Origin: Bacteroidales bacterium
Lineage (GTDB): Bacteria > Bacteroidota > Bacteroidia > Bacteroidales > CAIWKO01
Assembly: GCA_035389045.1 (NCBI GenBank)
Contig: DAOORA010000045.1
Location: 1 to 35,825, forward strand
Reading direction: 5' to 3'
DNA: 35,825 bases
Shown here piece after piece: positions 7,664 through 31,042 of the stretch (positions are counted from its first letter, which is position 1; the number at the start of each line of letters is the position of its first letter). The notes under the pieces are model-generated. The model searched no databases and was not told where the DNA came from. It saw only the letters and a program-made list of their open reading frames with translations. A program made the position numbers and the translations under genes.

Positions 7664-8680
7664 ATGCTGCAACGTTTTTTTGTTATTATTTCACTGATTG
7701 TCATATTTCCGTGTATTACCCTCTCACAGAAAAATGATGTACGACTGGATTCTCTTAAAGTGTATACAGGCATCATCGCCAGCGAAACGGCTGACTTCAG
7801 TAAATATGCCGCCAATGAACGGCTGCAGGGCCTTCTTGAAAAAATTTTTATGTCGGAGAAGCCCTTTGACTTTCCTTATGATTCGGTACCTAAATATTCG
7901 GCGCTCACTGCTCCCGATAAGAAATTCAAAATCCTGACCTGGGGCATTGCAAAAGAAAACGGCTCTTATGAATATTTTGGCTATATACTCTTTCCTGATA
8001 ATACGACCTTCAAAAAAAGGTATATTAAATTGTTTGATAATACGGACAAAATTGTCTATCCCGAAAATGAAATCAATGACTTCAGTAAATGGTACGGCGC
8101 AATTTATTATAAAGTCATACTTAGCGTATACCATGGTAAAAGAAACTACACTTTATTGGGATGGAAAGGCAATAATGAACTGACCACTAAAAAAGTCATT
8201 GAAGTACTGAGTTTCAGAACAAACGGGACACCGGTTTTCGGAAAACAATTCTTCAGAAAATACAAAGACAAAGAGAAAATTGTACGTGTTATTTTTGAAT
8301 ATTCATCGCGTTCGGCCATGCTGTTGCGTTATGATGAGCAAATGATACACGAAATAATCCGTCCGGCAAAAACGGTCAAATCGAAATACAAATCAAAAGA
8401 CAAAAAAAGCAACAAAGCACTGAGTCCGGATAAAAAAGTGGAAGCAAAGACCCGAACCACCAGAGCCAATATGATCGTTTTTGACCGCCTCTCACCGCTT
8501 GATCCCCGTACTTCGAAATATGCTGCCGACCTAGAAGGCCAGTATCAGTTTTATGTCCCCGAATCCAATGTTTTTGACGCTTTTATTTTCGAGGACGGAA
8601 AATGGCGGTTTATCAAAGATGTGGATGCCCGGAACCCCAAACCGCAAAATAAGAAAAAATTCGCCCCTCCTCAGTTGTAA
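7664..8680 (+). CDS. Hypothetical exported protein
   Basis: Long ORF with a signal-peptide-like N-terminus (MLQRFFVIISLIVIFPCITLSQ) and a Lys-rich insert; start could be 7610. Confidence 0.75.
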   Translation: MLQRFFVIISLIVIFPCITLSQKNDVRLDSLKVYTGIIASETADFSKYAANERLQGLLEKIFMSEKPFDFPYDSVPKYSALTAPDKKFKILTWGIAKENGSYEYFGYILFPDNTTFKKRYIKLFDNTDKIVYPENEINDFSKWYGAIYYKVILSVYHGKRNYTLLGWKGNNELTTKKVIEVLSFRTNGTPVFGKQFFRKYKDKEKIVRVIFEYSSRSAMLLRYDEQMIHEIIRPAKTVKSKYKSKDKKSNKALSPDKKVEAKTRTTRANMIVFDRLSPLDPRTSKYAADLEGQYQFYVPESNVFDAFIFEDGKWRFIKDVDARNPKPQNKKKFAPPQL

Positions 8681-8742
8681 TTTTTGAATCATAAAAAGTT
8701 AAATTTTCACGGGGTTTCTTTTTTTTATTTCATTAAAAAATT

Positions 8743-8750
8743 TATATTTG
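8743..8750 (+). promoter_or_regulatory. Bacteroidota -7 promoter element (TATATTTG) for the serC operon
   Basis: TAnnTTTG consensus about 45 bp upstream of serC. Confidence 0.65.
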
Positions 8751-8793
8751 CAAAAAATAAAAATTATTAACATTTCTAAACCTATATATAGCT

Positions 8794-9867
8794 ATGAAAA
8801 AAGTACACAATTTTAACGCTGGTCCCTCTATCCTGCCACGGATAGCCATTGAAAACACTGCAAATGCGGTTCTTGATCTTAACGGAACAGGCATGTCAAT
8901 CCTTGAAATTTCGCACCGGAGCAAGGATTTTCAGGCCATCATTGATGAAGCGGTAGCGCTTTTCAAAGAACAACTGGGAATCCCTGAAGGATACCAAGTT
9001 TTGTTTTTAGGTGGCGGCGCCAGCATGCAGTTCTGCATGGTGCCCTTCAACCTTTTCGAAAAGAAAGCCGCTTACCTCGAAACCGGAGTATGGGCGAAAA
9101 AAGCTATCAAAGAAGCTAAACTTTTTGGTGAAGTGCAGATCGTTGCTTCATCGGCCGATAAAAACTTCACTTACATTCCCAAAGGATGGGAAATTCCAAA
9201 AGATGTTGATTATATGCACATTACCACCAACAACACCATCTACGGTTCTGAGATCAGGTACGATATGGACAGCCCTGTACCTTTGGTGGCCGATATGTCT
9301 TCAGATATTTTCAGCCGTCCGGTGGATGTTTCAAAATATGCACTGATCTATGGCGGTGCTCAGAAGAACCTCGGGCCGGCAGGCGTCACTTTCGTGGTGG
9401 TTCGCGAAGATGTTTTAGGAAAAGTCAGCCGTACCATTCCTTCGATGCTCGATTACAGAACCCATATCAAGGAGGGTTCCATGTTCAACACCCCACCGTG
9501 TCTGCCCATTTACACCATTATGGAAACGCTGCGCTGGCTGAAATCCCTGGGCGGTGTGAAAGTGATGGAAGAAATGAACAGGAAAAAAGCAGCTTTGTTA
9601 TATGATGCTATTGACAACAGTAAAATATTTGTAGGGACGGTTGAAAAGGATTCCCGTTCACTGATGAATATCTGTTTTGTCATGAAACCCGAATACCAGA
9701 ACCTGGAAGAAGAATTCATGAATTTTGCCAAATCACAGGGCATGGTCGGCATTAAAGGTCACCGTTCTGTTGGCGGATTCAGGGCTTCCTGCTACAATGC
9801 ATTGCCTATCGAAAGCGTTCAGGCACTGGTGGATTGTATGAAAGAATTTGAAGAACAGAAAGCATAA
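8794..9867 (+). CDS. serC: Phosphoserine aminotransferase
   Basis: [31 protein letters not shown] (PLP Lys), [15 protein letters not shown]. Confidence 0.98.
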
Positions 9868-9870
9868 ATA

Positions 9871-10405
9871 AGTTAGGAGTTGAGAGTTGAGAGTTGGGAG
9901 TCAGGAGTTGGGAGTTAGGAGTCAGGAGTTGGGAGTTAGGAGTTAGGAGTTGGGAGTTGGGAGTTAGGAGTCAGGAGTTGGGAGTTGGGAGTTGGGAGTT
10001 GGGAGTTGGGAGTTGGGAGTTGGGAGTTGGGAGTTNNNNNNNNNNNNNNNNNNNNNNNNNNNNNNNNNNNNNNNNNNNNNNNNNNNNNNNNNNNNNNNNN
10101 NNNNNNNNNNNNNNNNNNNNNNNNNNNNNNNNNNNGGAGTTGGGAGTCAGGAGTTGGGAGTTAGGAGTTAGGAGTTAGGAGTTGGGAGTTAGGAGTCAGG
10201 AGTTGGGAGTTGGGAGTTAGGAGTTAGGAGTCAGGAGTTGGGAGTTGGGAGTTGGGAGTTGGGAGTTGGGAGTTGGGAGTTGGGAGTTGGGAGTCAGGAG
10301 TTGGGAGTTAGGAGTTAGGAGTTAGGAGTTGGGAGTTAGGAGTCAGGAGTTGGGAGTTGGGAGTTGGGAGTTAGGAGTTAGGAGTCAGGAGTTGGGAGTT
10401 GGGAG
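9871..10405 (+). repeat. G-rich heptamer tandem array (AGTTGGG / AGTTAGG / AGTCAGG / AGTTGAG), at least 60 units, interrupted by an assembly gap
   Basis: About 23 units before and about 38 units after the 100-N gap; strict 7-bp period. Confidence 0.98.
10036..10135. other. Assembly gap (100 N, probably a placeholder length)
   Basis: Run of N inside the tandem array. Confidence 1.
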
Positions 10406-10406
10406 G

Positions 10407-10424
10407 TCCCGATAGCTATCGGGA
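10407..10424. repeat. Perfect 18-bp palindrome TCCCGATAGCTATCGGGA (REP-like)
   Basis: Exactly self-complementary; heptamer-like GGGAGTTGGAG resumes right after it. Confidence 0.9.
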
Positions 10425-10455
10425 GGGAGTTGGAGACATGAATTGAAAAAAAGAT

Positions 10456-10821
10456 ATGAGTGTGAATGATGATATTTTTAAATTTGAGCAATTGGCCGTC
10501 TACCAAAAAAGTTTGGAATACCTTGATTTCACTTATGAAACTTCATGTAAATTTCCTTCGAATGAAATATTTATGCTCACTTCTCAATTCATAAGAGCCG
10601 CCCAATCTATATCATTAAATATTGCAGAAGGTGCAGGCGGAAGCAATGCTATGTTCAGACGATATCTTAACATTTCAAAAGGTTCTATGAGAGAATGTAT
10701 TGTTTGTACTACTATTGCTTATAGAAGAAAGTACATTTCTGATGCTGTTCAAAAAACATCAAGAATCAAACTTACTGAATTATCTAAAATGACAAGTGGC
10801 TTAATCAAATCAATTAATTAA
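10456..10821 (+). CDS. Four-helix-bundle protein (23S rRNA IVS protein / Avd-like family)
   Basis: FEQLAVYQKS, FPSNEIFMLTSQFIRAAQSISLNIAEG, FRRYLNISKGSMRE; 121 aa; visibly AT-richer than its neighbours. Confidence 0.92.
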   Translation: MSVNDDIFKFEQLAVYQKSLEYLDFTYETSCKFPSNEIFMLTSQFIRAAQSISLNIAEGAGGSNAMFRRYLNISKGSMRECIVCTTIAYRRKYISDAVQKTSRIKLTELSKMTSGLIKSIN

Positions 10822-10861
10822 CTCAAAACTCAAAACTCAAAACTCATAACTCAGAACTCAA
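10820..10861 (+). repeat. Heptamer tandem array (AACTCAA)3-AACTCAT-AACTCAG-AACTCAA, inverted relative to the upstream array
   Basis: Six units starting within the stop codon; core AACTC is the reverse complement of core GAGTT. Confidence 0.92.
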
Positions 10862-10885
10862 AAAAAACAATTAAAACATATAAAA

Positions 10886-11812
10886 ATGGCAAAAGTACTT
10901 ATAGCTACCGAGAAACCATTTGCGGCAGTTGCTGTGAACGGAATTAAAAAAATCTTTGACGAAGCAGGCTTCGAAACCGTGCTTCTTGAAAAATATACCG
11001 ACAAAGCCGACCTGATCAGTGCAGTGACTGATGTGGATGCCATGATCATCCGAAGCGATAAAGCCACGGCAGAAGTGATCAGTGCAGCAAAAAACCTTAA
11101 AATCATTGTCCGCGCTGGTGCAGGATATGACAATATTGACCTTGCTGCCGCCAGTGCACAAAAAATAGTGGCCATGAACACTCCGGGACAAAACTCAAAC
11201 GCTGTTGCCGAGCTGGCTGCCGGAATGATGGTCTTTATGTCGCGTCAGCAATTCAAAGGAGGTTCCGGAAATGAATTAAAAGGAAAAAAATTAGGTTTTC
11301 ATGCCTATGGCAACGTTCCAAGGATGATGGCCAATATTGCCAGAGGCTTTGGCATGGAATGTTATGCTTACGACCCTTTTATTCCTGAAACCGAGATTGC
11401 TAAAGACGGGGTGAAAGTAGTAAAAGACCTGAACGAACTGTACACGACATGCCAGTATGTATCATTGCATATTCCCGCCAATGAACAGACCAAAAAATCT
11501 ATTAACTTTGAACTGATGTCCAAAATGCCTAAAGGCGCAACTATCATCAATACAGCACGCAAGGAAGTGATCTGCGAAGATTCACTGAAACGCATGCTGG
11601 ACGAACGTCCTGATTTTAAATATTGCTCTGACATAGCTCCCGATTGTCATGCTGATATTAACGGAAAATATGAAAACCGTTATTATGCCACACCAAAAAA
11701 ACAGGGAGCCGAAACTTCTGAAGCTAATATTAACGCCGGACTGGCTGCTGCAAACCAGATTGTTGGCTATCTTAAGAATGGCATCACCAGGTTTCAGGTA
11801 AATAAATTTTAA
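10886..11812 (+). CDS. serA: D-3-phosphoglycerate dehydrogenase (short form, no ACT domain)
   Basis: IIRSD, RAGAGYDNID, NTPGQNSNAVAEL, YDPF, SLHIP, INTAR; position in the serC operon. Confidence 0.88.
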   Translation: MAKVLIATEKPFAAVAVNGIKKIFDEAGFETVLLEKYTDKADLISAVTDVDAMIIRSDKATAEVISAAKNLKIIVRAGAGYDNIDLAAASAQKIVAMNTPGQNSNAVAELAAGMMVFMSRQQFKGGSGNELKGKKLGFHAYGNVPRMMANIARGFGMECYAYDPFIPETEIAKDGVKVVKDLNELYTTCQYVSLHIPANEQTKKSINFELMSKMPKGATIINTARKEVICEDSLKRMLDERPDFKYCSDIAPDCHADINGKYENRYYATPKKQGAETSEANINAGLAAANQIVGYLKNGITRFQVNKF

Positions 11813-11852
11813 GTTATTTCATTATAATAGTTACCAACAATACCTTAAGCGA

Positions 11853-12296
11853 ATGGAAAACGATAAAAACATTTTTTTCTTCAGATTCGAAGATCTGAGG
11901 ATCTACAACAAAGCGCTTGAATACGTAAATTGGGTATATGCCAATACTCAGCCATTCCCTGACCCCATGAGGTTATGCCTGACCAACCGATTTATTGGTG
12001 CTGCACAAGCCATCGCGATAAATATTTCCGAAGGATCCAGCAGAGGCAAGGCCCAGTTCATATATTACCTGAAGATGGCCAAAAGTTCTATCAGGGAATG
12101 TATTGTTTACACCTCAGTGGCAGGAAAACTTGGATTTCTAAGCGAAAGCAGCGTTGAAGATTCGCGCAATGCGCTGATAGAAATGACAAAAATGATAGGC
12201 GCCCTGATCGCATCCCTTCAACGAAACGTCAAGCCGGAAGATAAAACAGATGATGATTTTGAAGATAATGTAAACCTGAACACAGAAATCGTTTAA
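11853..12296 (+). CDS. Second four-helix-bundle protein with an acidic C-terminal tail
   Basis: FEDLRIYNKA, AAQAIAINISEGS, FIYYLKMAKSSIRE; clearly homologous to 10456-10821. Confidence 0.88.
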   Translation: MENDKNIFFFRFEDLRIYNKALEYVNWVYANTQPFPDPMRLCLTNRFIGAAQAIAINISEGSSRGKAQFIYYLKMAKSSIRECIVYTSVAGKLGFLSESSVEDSRNALIEMTKMIGALIASLQRNVKPEDKTDDDFEDNVNLNTEIV

Positions 12297-12372
12297 TCAT
12301 ACCCTTCGCAGATATATTTAATTGGTAAGATTTTACCATCATCTTTTAATAATATTTAAATTTTTTTGAAAC

Positions 12373-13620
12373 ATGGCTATTTTAAAAGCTTTTAAGGGCT
12401 TACGCCCACCCAAAAACATAGCACACCTTGTAGCATCAAGGCCCTACGATGTGCTCAATTCAAAGGAAGCACGGATCGAAGCCGACGGAAATGAATATTC
12501 CCTGCTTCACATCATAAAACCGGAAATTGACCTTGCACCGGAAACAGACGAACACGATGCCCCGGTTTATGAAAAAGGAGCAGATAATTTCAGCAAATTC
12601 CGCGAAAAAAAATGGCTGGTGCCCGACGAAAAAGACTGCCTTTATATTTATGCACAGACCATGAACGGTAAGACACAATATGGCCTGGTTGGCTGTGCAG
12701 GCGTGAGCGATTATATGAACGGCATCATCAAAAAACATGAACTCACCCGGAAGGAAAAAGAAGAAGACAGGATGAAACATGTCCGAATTACCAACGCCAA
12801 TATGGAACCCGTATTCTTTACCTACCCTCCTGTAAAAGAAATTGACGATATTGTTGCCGGTATCGTTGAAAACCAGGCCCCTGAATATGATTTCACTTCC
12901 GTTGATGGCTTCGGCCACCATTTCTGGGTGATCAATGATGAACAAACGATCCACAGACTGATTGAGCTGTTCAAAAACATTCCGTATACCTATGTTGCCG
13001 ATGGCCATCACCGCACCGCTGCTGCTGCCCTGGTCGGTAATGAAAAAAAACAGCATAACCTCAACCATAACGGAACTGAAGAATACAATTTCTTTTTAGC
13101 GGTTCATTTTCCTGCCAACCAGCTTACAATTATTGACTACAACCGCGTCATTAAAGACCTGAACGGCCTGACGCCGGAAGAGTTTCTGAAAAAACTCGAA
13201 CTCGTCTTCACGGTTGAGCCTAAGGGCAGTGAGATTTACAAACCGGACAGGCTTCACAATTTCAGTCTTTACCTTGAAGGTACATGGTATTCACTGACGG
13301 CAAAGTCAGGCACCTTCAACGATGCTGACCCTATCGGGGTACTTGATGTCACCATACTGTCAAAACGGGTACTTGATGAAATTATCGGCATCAAAGATCT
13401 GAGGACCGACAAGAGGATTGATTTCGTCGGTGGCATACGAGGGTTGGGAGAACTGAAAAAACGTGTCGATTCCGGCGAGATGATAGCGGCTTTTGCATTA
13501 TATCCCGTATCTATGGAGCAGTTGATAAATATTGCCGACACCGGCAACATCATGCCCCCGAAAACTACCTGGTTTGAACCTAAACTGCGCAGCGGTCTGG
13601 TTGTGCACTCCTTAGAATAA
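12373..13620 (+). CDS. DUF1015 family protein
   Basis: PYDV, IKKHELT, YVADGHHR, MPPKTTWFEPKLRSGL; usual partner of serC-serA. Confidence 0.92.
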   Translation: MAILKAFKGLRPPKNIAHLVASRPYDVLNSKEARIEADGNEYSLLHIIKPEIDLAPETDEHDAPVYEKGADNFSKFREKKWLVPDEKDCLYIYAQTMNGKTQYGLVGCAGVSDYMNGIIKKHELTRKEKEEDRMKHVRITNANMEPVFFTYPPVKEIDDIVAGIVENQAPEYDFTSVDGFGHHFWVINDEQTIHRLIELFKNIPYTYVADGHHRTAAAALVGNEKKQHNLNHNGTEEYNFFLAVHFPANQLTIIDYNRVIKDLNGLTPEEFLKKLELVFTVEPKGSEIYKPDRLHNFSLYLEGTWYSLTAKSGTFNDADPIGVLDVTILSKRVLDEIIGIKDLRTDKRIDFVGGIRGLGELKKRVDSGEMIAAFALYPVSMEQLINIADTGNIMPPKTTWFEPKLRSGLVVHSLE

Positions 13621-13634
13621 AATTACAACAGGTC

Positions 13635-13668
13635 AAAAAAACGCCGGTCATTGAGCCGGCGTTTTTTT
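13635..13668. terminator. Bidirectional intrinsic terminator
   Basis: AAAAAAACGCCGG...CCGGCGTTTTTTT between convergent DUF1015 and DoxX genes. Confidence 0.9.
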
Positions 13669-14092
13669 ATTTCTTCCCATAAAATATCAAACGATCCAAA
13701 CTGTAACGTCCGGCGCCGGTAAATATAACTGACAAAAATACTATGCCCATTTCAATCGCATGTGAGGCCCCTTTGAGGCCATCTCCTGACGATAAATGCA
13801 TCAACGCAGCAATGATCATTGTGAAGAGCATCAGCAAGGCAGCTGGCCGTACAAACAATCCAGGAATCAACAACAGGCCGCCCAATGTTTCTGACAAGGC
13901 TGCCATAAATCCCCAGAACGTAAATCCAAACCCCACTCCGATGATATTCATCTGTGCTCCCAGAAAATCCCAGGTTGCCGGGCCGCCTGTCAATTTGGGC
14001 ATACCATGCAGGATAAACATGATGCCAATTCCGGTGCGTAATATCAGCAAACCAATATCTGTCGCCTGTGTTATAAATATTTTGTTTTTCAT
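13667..14092 (-). CDS. DoxX family membrane protein
   Basis: GLLILR...HG.PK, E..GG.LL, GAGRYSLD; four hydrophobic segments. Confidence 0.9.
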   Translation of the reverse strand: MKNKIFITQATDIGLLILRTGIGIMFILHGMPKLTGGPATWDFLGAQMNIIGVGFGFTFWGFMAALSETLGGLLLIPGLFVRPAALLMLFTMIIAALMHLSSGDGLKGASHAIEMGIVFLSVIFTGAGRYSLDRLIFYGKK

Positions 14093-27939: not shown

Positions 27940-29343
27940 ATGAGTTTAAAACACACCTTCAACCAGAACGATACGGTATGCGCTGTATCAACCCCTGCAG
28001 GTGTTGGCGCTATAGCGTTGATACGCATCAGTGGAACAAAATCGTTCGGCATACTCCGGAAAATATTTGTTCCTGCACAAAAGTTTTCCGAACAACCGAT
28101 GCCCGTCCGTACCCTGCATTACGGTAAAATTGTTTTTAAGGATGAAACCATAGATGATGTTCTGGTAAGCATTTTCCGCGCCCCACATTCGTACACCGGA
28201 GAAGATATGGCGGAGATCAACTGCCATGGTTCGATGTACATCCAGAAAAGAATAATGGAGGTGTTGCTGGCCTCCGGTGCCCGGCTGGCCTCGGCGGGAG
28301 AATTCACGTTAAGGTCATTTATGAACGGCAAACTCGACCTGGCCCAGGCCGAAGCTATTGCCGACCTGATTTCTGCCACATCAAAAAATGCCCACGACCT
28401 GGCACTGAGCCAGATGCGTGGCGGATTTTCCGATAAGATCAAAGAACTTCGTGCGAAACTGCTCCGTTTCGCATCGATGATAGAACTGGAACTGGATTTC
28501 AGCGAAGAAGATGTAGAGTTTGCAGACCGGCATGAACTACAACATTTAACTAATGAAATGAAAAATGAGGTACAAGCCCTGCTTGACTCATTCTCGCAGG
28601 GTAACGTGCTGAAAAACGGCATCCCTGTGGCCATCATCGGCAAGCCCAATGTGGGGAAATCTACGCTGCTGAACGCCCTGCTGAACGAAGAACGCGCTAT
28701 CGTATCCGAAATACCGGGAACAACACGCGACACCATAGAAGATACCCTGACGATCCGTGGCGTGACATTCCGGTTTATCGACACTGCCGGACTCAGAAAA
28801 TCTACTAATGAGATTGAACAGCTTGGAATCGAAAGAACCTATCAAAAGATCAACCAGGCACAGGTGATTCTCTATGTGATTGATATCTCGCAGACTACCG
28901 TGGACGACATTAAGAACGACCTGGCCGATTTCAGACAGCATATTTCCGACAACGAAAAAAAGTTCATTGTGATCGCCAACAAAATTGACCAGTTGGTAAA
29001 AACACCGGTGAAATTCCGCGAGTTGGTTGAGCTGGAAACGATTTTTGTGTCAGCTAAACGGAAAGAGAACATCAGCCAGATCACCGATTCCTTATTGCGT
29101 TCGGTAAATATCGCAGACGTTGCCGACCGTGCAGTCGTCTCCAATATCAGGCATTACGAAGCGTTAAACAGAACCTTGCTTGCCCTGGTCAACATTGGCA
29201 ACGCTCTCGAAGAGCATGTTTCCGCCGACCTGCTCAGCACCGATATCCATGCTGCGTTGCATTTTCTGGGCGAGATCACCGGAGAGATCACCACGGAAGA
29301 TCTGCTGGGAGAGATTTTTGGTAAGTTTTGTATCGGAAAATGA
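27940..29343 (+). CDS. mnmE: tRNA modification GTPase MnmE
   Basis: DTVCAVST, SYTGED, GKPNVGKS, GTTRD, DTAG, NKID, C-terminal FCIGK. Confidence 0.98.
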   Translation: MSLKHTFNQNDTVCAVSTPAGVGAIALIRISGTKSFGILRKIFVPAQKFSEQPMPVRTLHYGKIVFKDETIDDVLVSIFRAPHSYTGEDMAEINCHGSMYIQKRIMEVLLASGARLASAGEFTLRSFMNGKLDLAQAEAIADLISATSKNAHDLALSQMRGGFSDKIKELRAKLLRFASMIELELDFSEEDVEFADRHELQHLTNEMKNEVQALLDSFSQGNVLKNGIPVAIIGKPNVGKSTLLNALLNEERAIVSEIPGTTRDTIEDTLTIRGVTFRFIDTAGLRKSTNEIEQLGIERTYQKINQAQVILYVIDISQTTVDDIKNDLADFRQHISDNEKKFIVIANKIDQLVKTPVKFRELVELETIFVSAKRKENISQITDSLLRSVNIADVADRAVVSNIRHYEALNRTLLALVNIGNALEEHVSADLLSTDIHAALHFLGEITGEITTEDLLGEIFGKFCIGK

Positions 29344-29350
29344 CTAAAGA

Positions 29351-29565
29351 AATAATCGGAAATAATCGGAAAACAAAATCGTTGTAAATAAGCCATTTAC
29401 AATAATTCATTTTTCATTTTTTTGCATATTTTCCTATTTTGTGTCAAATATATTTAGTATATTTGGTCACAAATAAAATATTTGTGTCTATTTGTGTCTA
29501 TAAAATCTAAAAACAAATATTCGATGTCCGCTTATGTCCATTTATGGTATGTCTATGTCCGCTTA
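29351..29565. repeat. attL-proximal short direct and inverted repeats (putative Int arm and Xis sites)
   Basis: (AATAATCGGA)2 at 29351-29370; TTGTAAAT/ATTTACAA at 29382-29402; (TTTGTGTCTA)2 at 29481-29500 plus TTTGTGTC at 29438; ATGTCCGCTTA at 29524 and 29555. Confidence 0.7.
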
Positions 29566-29567
29566 TT

Positions 29568-29951
29568 ATGACTTCAACAAGAAATTACAACAAAATTTGC
29601 CTGTTTTGTAGAAAAGAATTTAAGGCACAAAAAAGAACAACAAAATTCTGTAGTCATAATTGTGCTTCAAGAGCATATAAAGTAAATAAAAGGAATGAAA
29701 CTCAAATTGAAGTAAACTTTGAAGAGTATGTGAAAAATCAACTTAATATTCATACTGAAATATTAAATATTATTCAAAATTCATTAAGTCAATTAATACA
29801 ATTCAATAGAACTATAAAAGCAGAATATATGCCCGTTGAAGATTTCTGCAAAATAAAAGGTATAAGCCGGAAAACCTTAAGCCGTTGGATAAAAGATAAT
29901 AAAGTAGAAACAAAACAATTAAGTACTCGCAAATATCTAATAAAATCATAA
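29568..29951 (+). CDS. DNA-binding protein with an N-terminal Zn finger and a C-terminal MerR/Xis-like HTH
   Basis: CLFC...FCSHNC; YMPVEDFCKIKGISRKTLSRWIK; start 29568 or 29544. Confidence 0.8.
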   Translation: MTSTRNYNKICLFCRKEFKAQKRTTKFCSHNCASRAYKVNKRNETQIEVNFEEYVKNQLNIHTEILNIIQNSLSQLIQFNRTIKAEYMPVEDFCKIKGISRKTLSRWIKDNKVETKQLSTRKYLIKS

Positions 29952-29953
29952 AT

Positions 29954-31042
29954 ATGAAAGTAAATACTTATTTAAGACCCGCAAAAGATGGCAGAAGCCA
30001 TATTTATTTGGACTATTATGTAAACGGAAACAGAATGCGAAAAAAGACAGGATTGTTTATTTATGACAAACCTAAGACAAAATCTGAAAAAGATCATAAT
30101 AAAGAAAATAATATTATGATTGAAACTATGAAAGCTGAATTAACATTGAAAATTCAGCGAAATGAAATCGGTTTTGAAACAAATAAAAAAAAGGAAAGCG
30201 ACTTTATTAAATATGTAAAACGGATAGTTGACGAAAGAGAAAAACGAGAAACAAATTATGATGGTTGGAGAAGTGCATATAAACACCTATCTGAATTTAG
30301 TCCTAACGGACTACATTTTAATCAATTAAATGTAGATTATTTAGAAGATTTCAAACAGTATCTATTAAAAGATCTTAAAGGCACATCAGCACAAAGATAT
30401 TTTAATTTAATAAAACATGCAGTTCATGATGCTTTTAGAGACAGACTAATAAAATATGACTATGCATACAATGTTGAATCCCCAAAAAGTGAAGAACCAA
30501 TAAAACAATATTTAACTGATAAAGAACTCTTTCTTTTGTATAATTCAGAATGTAAAAGTCCAATCTTAAAAAAAGCTTTTTTGTTTAGTTGTCTTACAGG
30601 TATGGCTTATGCTGATATTATGAAAATTCATTGGAATAACCTATCAAAAGATAATGATGGCAAATGGCAAATTATATTTCACAGAAAAAAAACAAAAGGA
30701 TTGCAATACCATCAAATATCTGAAGAAGCAATAGAATTATTAGGAGAAATTCAGAAAAATGATGAAAAAGTTTTTAAAAGTTTAAGATATAACTCATGGA
30801 TGAATGTAATTTTAAGAGATTGGGTATATGGAGCAGGAATAAAAAAGGTAATTACATTTCATTGTGCAAGGCATACTTATGCAACTATTTTATTAAATAA
30901 AGGTGTTTCATTATCCGTTGTTCAAGAATTATTAGGCCATCAGGATATTAAAACAACGAGAGGATATGCCAAAGTAATGGATTCAAATAAAAGAACTGCA
31001 TCAGAAATGATAACATTAAAACCTAAAAATGAGGAAAAATAA
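29954..31042 (+). CDS. Site-specific tyrosine integrase (Bacteroidota type, arm-binding + SAM-like + catalytic domains)
   Basis: IYLDYY arm domain; FLFSCLTGMAYAD, KKT, FHCARHTYAT, LLGH, YAKV. Confidence 0.95.
   Translation: MKVNTYLRPAKDGRSHIYLDYYVNGNRMRKKTGLFIYDKPKTKSEKDHNKENNIMIETMKAELTLKIQRNEIGFETNKKKESDFIKYVKRIVDEREKRETNYDGWRSAYKHLSEFSPNGLHFNQLNVDYLEDFKQYLLKDLKGTSAQRYFNLIKHAVHDAFRDRLIKYDYAYNVESPKSEEPIKQYLTDKELFLLYNSECKSPILKKAFLFSCLTGMAYADIMKIHWNNLSKDNDGKWQIIFHRKKTKGLQYHQISEEAIELLGEIQKNDEKVFKSLRYNSWMNVILRDWVYGAGIKKVITFHCARHTYATILLNKGVSLSVVQELLGHQDIKTTRGYAKVMDSNKRTASEMITLKPKNEEK

Follow-up and report, generated by a model that had tools for sequence, protein, structure and literature searches.

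We analysed contig DAOORA010000045.1 of a Bacteroidales bacterium (GenBank assembly GCA_035389045.1), a stretch of 35,825 nucleotides referred to below as the window. Between its serC and serA genes lies hb1, a gene for a small four-helix-bundle protein of the PF05635 family, which stands between two arrays of tandem heptamers in inverted orientation. Comparison with related genomes shows that this cassette replaced the ancestral serC-serA spacer, and was not inserted into it, and that the replacement was a recent lateral swap between congeners, later than the divergence of the genomes concerned. With slightly better than even confidence, we read the element as a promoterless, laterally mobile cassette of the intervening-sequence (IVS) type, that is, a PF05635 gene within inverted heptamer arrays (GGAGTY upstream, RACTC downstream).

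A PF05635 gene between inverted heptamer arrays

A preliminary description of this DNA had claimed the order serC, heptamer array, hb1, AACTCAN array and serA, had described the arrays as inverted, of period 7 and with complementary cores, and had put the whole forward as a candidate repeat-flanked cassette. Our re-reading of the sequence agrees with that order at every element (Table 1). The 5' array begins three bases past the serC stop codon, and Tandem Repeats Finder places period-7 arrays at 9871-10035 (23.6 copies), 10136-10405 (38.6 copies) and 10820-10863 (AACTCAA, 6.3 copies). When the 5' units are aligned with the reverse-complemented 3' units, 5/7 positions agree in each unit (GAGTT core), giving an inverted-arm score of 26, above the threshold of 20 that marks the 95th percentile of mismatched-locus controls. 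The claim of a discrete armed cassette is likewise supported. The preliminary description does not mention the 18-nt palindrome between the 5' array and hb1, the second PF05635 gene (hb2) after serA, or the long arrays of this heptamer at other loci of the genome.

The gene itself scores 91.3 bits with PF05635 (cut-off 33.8) and 90.1 bits with TIGR02436 (cut-off 24). Its GC content is 31%, against 45% for serC and 43% for serA. An Rfam scan of 8500-12600 at E<=1 found no rRNA, its sole match being a chance one to a small nucleolar RNA (snoRNA) model below threshold. The cassette is located between two protein-coding genes and hence outside helices 25 and 45 of 23S rRNA, the sites by which an IVS is recognised.

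The cassette replaced the ancestral spacer

Among relatives of the source genome we collected 29 serC loci, 23 of which also hold serA, with spacers of 17-499 nt. None of the 23 assembled serC-serA spacers contains a PF05635 gene, and the empty sites foreseen in the preliminary description thus exist. In close congeners the empty spacers measure 130-150 nt and contain what is, by eye, a terminator-like hairpin. TAnnTTTG, the Bacteroidetes -7 promoter motif, stands 35-63 nt before serA in 6 of the 10 empty spacers scanned.

The carriers of the cassette are a few related sludge bacteria. They comprise three congeners, namely the source genome (G000), G002 (L005, L034, L129) and G013 (L130). In G002 the array lies at a contig end right after serC, and the gene with a 15-unit 3' arm is found on another contig and on L129.

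The swap is recognised from three features of these alleles, namely an interspersed serC tree, low divergence of hb1 and shared sharp borders. A tree of 22 serC rows joins filled G002 to its empty sister G016 (support 100/100), and the sister group of filled G013 consists of the empty G008 and G001 (support 98/97). The synonymous divergence (dS) between the three filled genomes is 0.16-0.20 for hb1 and 0.97-1.09 for serC, an approximately five-fold gap in all three pairs, measured on three genomes and about 75 synonymous sites. All three filled alleles have a serC that ends in ..CAGAAAGCA-TAA, unlike the empty ones. The 22 nt before serA, compared by eye, hardly vary among the three filled alleles and do not resemble the empty ones, which places the right end of the swapped segment at 10864-10885. 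The moved unit runs roughly from 9853 to 10885, with its borders at the last four codons of serC and at the serA ATG. Compared in 60-nt windows, G002 and the empty G016 are 87-100% identical in serC and 88-98% in serA. The locus shows both presence/absence polymorphism and a history discordant with that of its flanks, the two marks of a mobile cassette in the generic sense.

Could hb1 instead be a long-standing resident, passed on vertically and lost repeatedly, its low dS being a matter of constraint? The second PF05635 gene of this locus, hb2, is an example of one that has kept its site throughout a family, and synonymous sites in a gene as AT-rich as hb1 may be constrained. Yet the empty sisters keep the ancestral spacer with hairpin and promoter motif, which simple deletion cannot recreate. 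Vertical descent also sits badly with the interspersed serC tree (support 98-100), with the five-fold dS gap in all three pairs and with the sharp borders, and we regard it as very unlikely.

The pairing of gene and heptamer type extends beyond this locus. GGAGTY upstream and RACTCC downstream arms occur at four of the six genomic contexts of hb1 relatives, namely serC/serA (93-100% identity), serA/DUF1015 (81%), serA/other (69%) and a Planctomycetia contig (57%). The two remaining contexts (57/52% identity; 43% identity, between rplK and rplA) have other heptamers. Across these contexts the heptamer type follows the lineage of hb1 to new sites and into a second phylum.

The serC-serA locus is in effect a natural experiment: the arms of its three filled alleles span an about nine-fold range of length, and very close sisters are empty. 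The swap borders are sharp to a few bases, and the cassette has cost the essential serA the promoter motif it once had. Cassette movement, RNA processing at the arms and protein binding are made directly testable by this locus.

Inverted arms accompany most of the PF05635 genes surveyed

The source genome (4.46 Mb in 135 contigs, 41% GC, 96% complete) holds nine PF05635 matches with a mutual identity of only 21-41%. A period-7/8 array lies no more than 150 nt from seven of the nine, and in five of them such arrays stand on both sides; the corresponding shares of random 366-bp segments are 0.58% (at least one side) and 0.04% (both sides). The units are specific to each locus (AGCCAAT/ATGGCTG, AGATTTG/AAATCAT, TTCAATA/ATTGAAA, GGAGTTC/GAACT..), and the two sides are mutually reverse-complementary. 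The inverted score lies above the control threshold in six of the nine genes. No inverted arms were detected at hb2, whose score of 17 is below the threshold of 20, and one other gene also falls below it. The third exception (G000:C49:31215-31565) is enclosed by direct octamer arrays, CCTAACAG. The inverted form of this octamer array is located at the end of contig C10.

We then surveyed the family in Bacteroidota, where 234 of the 301 genomes sampled have PF05635, often in multiple copies. The set consisted of the best match from each of 90 genomes, chosen out of about 1290 matches; of these 90, 88 loci were usable and 65 were non-redundant at <70% identity; the 120-nt flanks of each locus were scored against those of mismatched-locus pairs, with the cut at the 95th percentile. 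Own-locus inverted arms were found in 48 of the 65 non-redundant relatives, where about three are expected. Together with the counts in the source genome, this bears out the suggestion that heptamer arrays are tied to the PF05635 family.

The arms of these 48 cassettes are uniform in several respects. Their period is 7 in 41 cases, 8 in six and 6 in one, and their median length is 23.5 nt. On the sense strand, upstream arms contain more AG than CT in 42 loci, the opposite holds in two and four are tied, with 10% C overall. Units of the upstream arm follow the consensus T-N-A-G-T-N-N and contain 0.97 AG on average. The genes also tend to point the same way as their neighbours: 46 of 51 callable upstream genes and 44 of 52 callable downstream genes are co-oriented with the cassette. 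Period-7 arms as three-frame stop-codon devices were considered and rejected, this property being present in just 13/48 5' arms and 5/48 3' arms.

Two further loci illustrate the range of arrangements. The PF05635 gene of L039 has direct heptamer arrays of CATCGAA, not inverted ones. At 390-870 of metagenome contig L135, a relative of hb1 (PF05635, 43% identity) stands between TCATAGT/CTATGAT arms; the genes on either side were read by eye as those for ribosomal proteins L11 and L1 (rplK/rplA), a highly expressed operon. Other operon-embedded cassettes of the source genome lie between genes that, by eye, may encode subunits of succinate dehydrogenase, 2-oxoacid oxidoreductase and Rnf.

The long 5' array appears to be a secondary expansion

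The assembled 5' array contains a gap, and an ungapped metagenome contig with flanks identical to the window (L128) was used to count its units. From the serC stop to the palindrome that follows the array, L128 has 72 full units in 515 nt (39 GGGAGTT, 23 AGGAGTT, 4 GGGAGTC, 4 AGGAGTC and 2 GAGAGTT). The unit order of the right-hand array piece of the window was not found exactly in L128, so the array is either variable or hard to assemble. Going by its letters, (GGGAGTT)n is what we take to be a textbook G-quadruplex motif.

In the preliminary description this array of 60 or more units could pair with the six 3' units; it is not their natural partner. The numbers of 5' and 3' units are about 8 and about 11 in G013 (L130), at least 53 and 15 in G002, and 72 and 6 in the source genome. 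We read the long 5' array as a secondary, lineage-specific and genome-wide expansion of the heptamer and not as a matched arm, because the arms of L130 are short, arms in the family are short, and gene-less arrays occur in the source genome and three congeners.

GGAGTYN runs are spread over about 14 loci of the source genome (36 runs, 2.2 kb), and near most of the arrays inspected elsewhere in that genome there is neither a PF05635 gene nor an inverted partner. Arrays of at least five GGAGTYN units gave 148 matches in the source genome, 169 in G002, 65 in G016 and 18 in G014; of the other genomes among the 41 searched, two had one match each and 35 had none. The spread of arrays is not tied to hb1, since G016 has arrays and no detected hb1. 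A link between gene-less arrays and hb1 was accordingly dropped, being contradicted by G016 as well as by its converse, G013, in which hb1 is present and no GGAGTYN arrays are assembled.

The gene-less arrays of the source genome lie on contigs C10, C14, C19, C44, C56, C59, C61, C63, C70, C77, C83, C84, C99 and C121. Eleven are at contig ends, and several start directly after a stop codon. GGAGTYN arrays probably account for part of the fragmentation of the source assembly. More generally, the cassette reading would make sense of many short-period arrays in metagenome-assembled genomes that have been a puzzle, and of the breaks between contigs that result from them.

The cassette copies in L129 and L130 lack the 18-nt palindrome that stands between the 5' array and hb1 in the window. 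The 16-nt core of this palindrome has 12 copies in the source genome, 11 of them within GGAGTYN arrays. At G000:C80:6177 the palindrome TCCCGATAGCTATCGGGA is flanked by runs of A and T and resembles the hairpin of a bidirectional terminator. A gene-less array pair at G000:C19:8330-8977, (GGGCGAC/GGGAGAC)n followed by (GACTCCC)n between two genes, resembles an empty hairpin of the same design and contains GCCGCGGC palindromes.

The variable length of the 5' array raises the possibility of a contingency microsatellite, in which the number of units tunes the transcription or translation that reaches hb1 and serA. Close alleles do differ greatly (~8, at least 53 and 72 units), the order of units differs between two assemblies with identical flanks, and serA has lost its own promoter motif. 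The target of such switching, though, would be a housekeeping biosynthetic gene, GGAGTYN arrays follow unrelated genes in both orientations, and the inverted 3' arm and the family-wide pattern are left unexplained. We consider this scarcely probable.

Arm pairing and transcription

Experimental precedent for such an arrangement comes from Coxiella burnetii. According to PMC4990558, its helix 45 IVS holds an S23p (= PF05635) open reading frame (ORF) inside a stem of terminal inverted repeats, and three to four tandem heptamers GACAGAT, whose number varies between strains, precede the ORF. RNase III cuts at the first upstream heptamer, and the element is described there as selfish and possibly once mobile. 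As the preliminary description had surmised, heptamers near such genes have therefore been noticed before, at least in this IVS. AG, present about once per unit in the upstream arms of Bacteroidota, occurs in the Coxiella unit as well.

In the window, every one of the six 3' units finds a 5' partner in both the minimum-free-energy (MFE) and the centroid fold of 10290-10890. A stem-loop closed around the ORF by terminal inverted repeats, a hallmark of IVSs, is thus predicted here too, with pairing weaker than in the Coxiella stem, which is reported as 28 bp (PMC4990558).

Sludge metatranscriptome contigs from two runs of two studies cover hb1 (X2, 10393-10771; X3, 10645-10795) and serA (X2, 11010-12129; X3, 10888-11792). 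Positions 10796-10887 are covered by no RNA contig and are spanned by DNA contigs (X1, 10404-13700; X4, 10745-10901); the RNA-library contigs, with a depth of 2-3 and stops at differing places, cannot show ends, and DNA in an RNA library is possible.

Upstream of the cassette the only TAnnTTTG match is TATATTTG at 8743. Apart from a copy within hb1, the motif is missing from the whole interval that separates the serC stop from the serA ATG, so that serA is probably transcribed by read-through from the motif at 8743, in front of serC.

In the cassette reading, the arms would be the cassette's own ends and the substrate of a precise swap mechanism, supplied either in trans or by the encoded protein. 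The cassette would be transcribed from the serC promoter, and serA would now rely on read-through. In the transcript the arms would pair as 5-bp helices separated by 2x2 loops. By analogy with ORF-bearing 23S rRNA IVSs, RNase III may then cut the arm-arm stem, a step to which we give just short of an even chance; an RNase III gene is present in the source genome. Slippage, or ectopic exchange with the genome-wide GGAGTYN/palindrome arrays, would have lengthened the 5' arm from about 8 units to about 72, and this length would be a by-product, not a requirement.

A number of observations weigh against this reading. The fold has a z-score of only -1.9 against 20 shuffles, though no shuffle folds as well. 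Over the 48 armed cassettes, arm mismatches comprise 95 transversions, 37 G.U-type and 28 A.C-type changes; as G.U is about as frequent as A.C, the expected signature of a selected RNA helix is missing. At hb1 the arm mismatches are G.A and A.A, and the dominant GGAGTC units of G002 face AACTC (C.A). Significant inverted arms are lacking in 17 of the 65 relatives, and direct repeats score in 12 of the 65, including C49 and L039. G016, which is 77% complete, has GGAGTYN arrays, and no hb1 was found in it. Neither the cassette nor its immediate surroundings contain a recombinase gene. With about 75 sites and three genomes behind it, the low dS of hb1 may in part be a matter of constraint in a gene of 31% GC. 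Finally, replacement leaves no target duplication or scar, so that insertion and allelic exchange are indistinguishable.

A different explanation is that the unit is a selected mRNA intervening sequence whose arms loop the gene out for RNase III excision, pairing in any register, with mobility being incidental. Locus-specific complementarity kept despite differing units (48/65), a strict strand polarity of the arms (42/48) that suggests a single-strand constraint, the co-orientation of cassettes with host operons, the predicted fold and the Coxiella precedent are all in keeping with it. The mismatches speak against it, as they show no excess of wobble pairs, and the helices here are just 5 bp with 2x2 loops. 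Moreover, the G013 sister allele manages with about 8 5' units, and long arrays of the same heptamer exist without gene or inverted partner. The earlier proposal that the arms pair in the transcript agrees with the fold, which pairs the six 3' units, and it is weakened by the modest z-score and the missing wobble excess. Selection for RNA excision as the primary explanation is a serious possibility, if an unlikely one.

The encoded protein and its resident relative

To our knowledge, PF05635 proteins have had no function assigned since their discovery in rRNA intervening sequences. The hb1 product is basic (pI 9.2), and the pI is above 8 in 42 of the 65 non-redundant relatives. In sequence it is similar to the structures 2gsc (the closest, E 2.7e-10) and 2rld in the Protein Data Bank (PDB), with five chains listed for each. 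By this similarity, hb1 may encode a ring-forming (pentameric) protein. PMC3936711 gives the family motif as (G)xxRxxxSxxxNxxE. In hb1 this appears as R47-x3-S-x3-N-x2-E (RAAQSISLNIAE from residue 47), with Q replacing the leading G, and R-x3-[ST]-x3-N-x2-E is found in 65 of 65 non-redundant relatives.

The hb2 protein is 41% identical to that of hb1 and has a pI of 5.1, and its motif has G and A in place of R and S. An hb2-type gene sits 3' of serA, in the serA/DUF1015 spacer, in 15 of the 23 relatives' loci that hold serA, a distribution that marks hb2 as an old resident of this slot across genus and family. On contig L131 the slot is occupied by an hb1-type gene (81% identity) with GGAGTC arms.

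These properties lead to the suggestion that the arrays are binding sites for a ring-forming hb1 protein, for autoregulation, coating of RNA or DNA, or marking of ends, and that complementarity merely reflects the same site on both sides. The family-wide consensus T-N-A-G-T-N-N with its ~0.97 AG per unit would suit such sites. So would a heptamer type common to hb1 relatives down to 57% identity at unrelated sites, the basic pI of hb1 and of 42/65 relatives, the five chains of 2gsc and 2rld, and the loss of the motif R and S in the armless resident hb2. Shared heptamers would result just as well from co-inheritance of gene and arms, however, and G016 has arrays where no hb1 was found. On this evidence we think that binding would be an attractive addition, though quite unlikely as the main explanation.

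A bolder version of the cassette reading would make the PF05635 gene with its inverted arms a new, self-contained mobile unit, in which the ring-forming protein would recognise the periodic, AG-containing arms and promote, independently of a recombinase, a precise exchange of entire intergenic spacers among related genomes. Gene-less palindrome-bearing arrays would then be its footprints or runaway products, and rRNA IVSs a special case cleaned by RNase III. We judge this decidedly unlikely.

Search for mobility machinery and relation to known systems

The preliminary description had stated that the cassette contains no transposase or reverse transcriptase (RT), and none was found in it. PF00078, the reverse transcriptase family, had no match in the 96%-complete source genome. 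Y1 transposases were considered as mobilisers and set aside as a lead only, because none of the seven matches in the genome comes within 900 nt of an array or palindrome. The best of them (96 bits, G000:C8:85400-86250) is flanked by small palindromes, GTCCCGT(T)AGGGAC, that are REP/RAYT-like and unlike the array palindrome.

REP/RAYT and IS200/IS605 systems consist of short dispersed intergenic palindromes mobilised in trans by Y1 transposases. The source genome likewise has dispersed palindromes together with its Y1_Tnp matches; unlike REP/RAYT, it has no Y1 gene within 900 nt of an array or palindrome, and the palindromes at the best Y1 match differ in sequence.

The element shares with 23S rRNA IVSs of Coxiella and Leptospira the protein family, inverted repeats around the ORF and upstream tandem heptamers. 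It differs from them in lying outside rRNA, in having arrays on both sides, in pairing at 5/7 positions and in having one arm of about 72 units, and also in the direct comparative evidence of a recent lateral replacement of a spacer.

Integron cassettes are promoterless, co-oriented units that are read from an outside promoter, carry imperfect inverted repeats folding as single strands, and are exchanged. The serC-serA cassette resembles them as a promoterless, co-oriented single-gene unit that is bounded by inverted repeats and exchanged between genomes. In contrast to integron cassettes, it has two heptamer-array arms and not one attC, and occurs in scattered operon spacers and not at an attI platform. 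No integron integrase gene is adjacent to the cassette, and no search aimed at IntI was made.

Avd, the accessory protein of diversity-generating retroelements (DGRs), forms pentamers and, like hb1, is a small, basic four-helix-bundle protein. Synthesis of the arrays by a reverse transcriptase with an Avd-like protein, in the manner of a DGR or a telomerase, would draw on a resemblance, the weak match of hb2 to the NCBIfam Avd model (27 bits against a cut-off of 80). It has next to no probability in our view, as no RT was found in the 96%-complete source genome, hb1 has no match to the Avd model, and no pair of template and variable repeats was seen. RT-made repeats, vertical history and a contingency microsatellite are all less likely than a swapped cassette.

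Period-7 arrays of variable copy number are also known as heptanucleotide short tandemly repeated repetitive (STRR) sequences in heterocystous cyanobacteria, which are intergenic as well, and as 7-bp contingency repeats, for example of Haemophilus hmw1A. We know of no report in which arrays of either kind pair as inverted arms flanking a PF05635 gene.

A search of the full-text literature, subscription journals not covered, turned up no account of PF05635 cassettes with such arms outside rRNA. In PMC3936711, PF05635 genes are described as scattered in cas loci. Within the literature covered, what had already been reported are heptamers in one IVS and PF05635 genes in cas loci, and what is new here is a series of filled and empty alleles with sharp borders.

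Layout of the locus and other features of the window

Table 1. Features of the serC-serA interval and its surroundings, in window coordinates
Feature	Position	Strand	Description
Candidate promoter motif TATATTTG	8743-8750	+	TAnnTTTG match, 51 nt 5' of the serC ATG
serC	8794-9867	+	Phosphoserine aminotransferase type, Aminotran_5; TAA stop 9865-9867
Last four codons of serC and stop	~9853-9867	+	Part of the low-divergence swapped segment
5' array of GGAGTYN heptamers	9871-10405	+	62 units assembled, plus a 100-N gap at 10036-10135
18-nt perfect palindrome TCCCGATAGCTATCGGGA	10407-10424		Between 5' array and hb1
Leader	10425-10455	+	31 nt from array/palindrome to the hb1 ATG; without TAnnTTTG
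hb1	10456-10821	+	121 aa, PF05635/TIGR02436 four-helix bundle; TAA stop 10819-10821
3' arm, six AACTCAN heptamers	10820-10863	+	Starts within the hb1 stop codon
A-rich spacer	10864-10885	+	22 nt to the serA ATG; right end of the swapped segment
serA	10886-11812	+	2-hydroxyacid dehydrogenase family; spacer without its own promoter motif
hb2	11853-12296	+	Second PF05635 gene, 147 aa, directly after serA

The nearest recombinase gene in the window encodes a tyrosine integrase at 29954-31039, about 19 kb from the cassette, and no link between the two was seen. At 29349-31039, after mnmE (27940-29340), this integrase gene is accompanied by a cluster of short tandem repeats, and genes for a helix-turn-helix (HTH) protein and a PIF1-like helicase follow; the region is probably an integrated mobile element.

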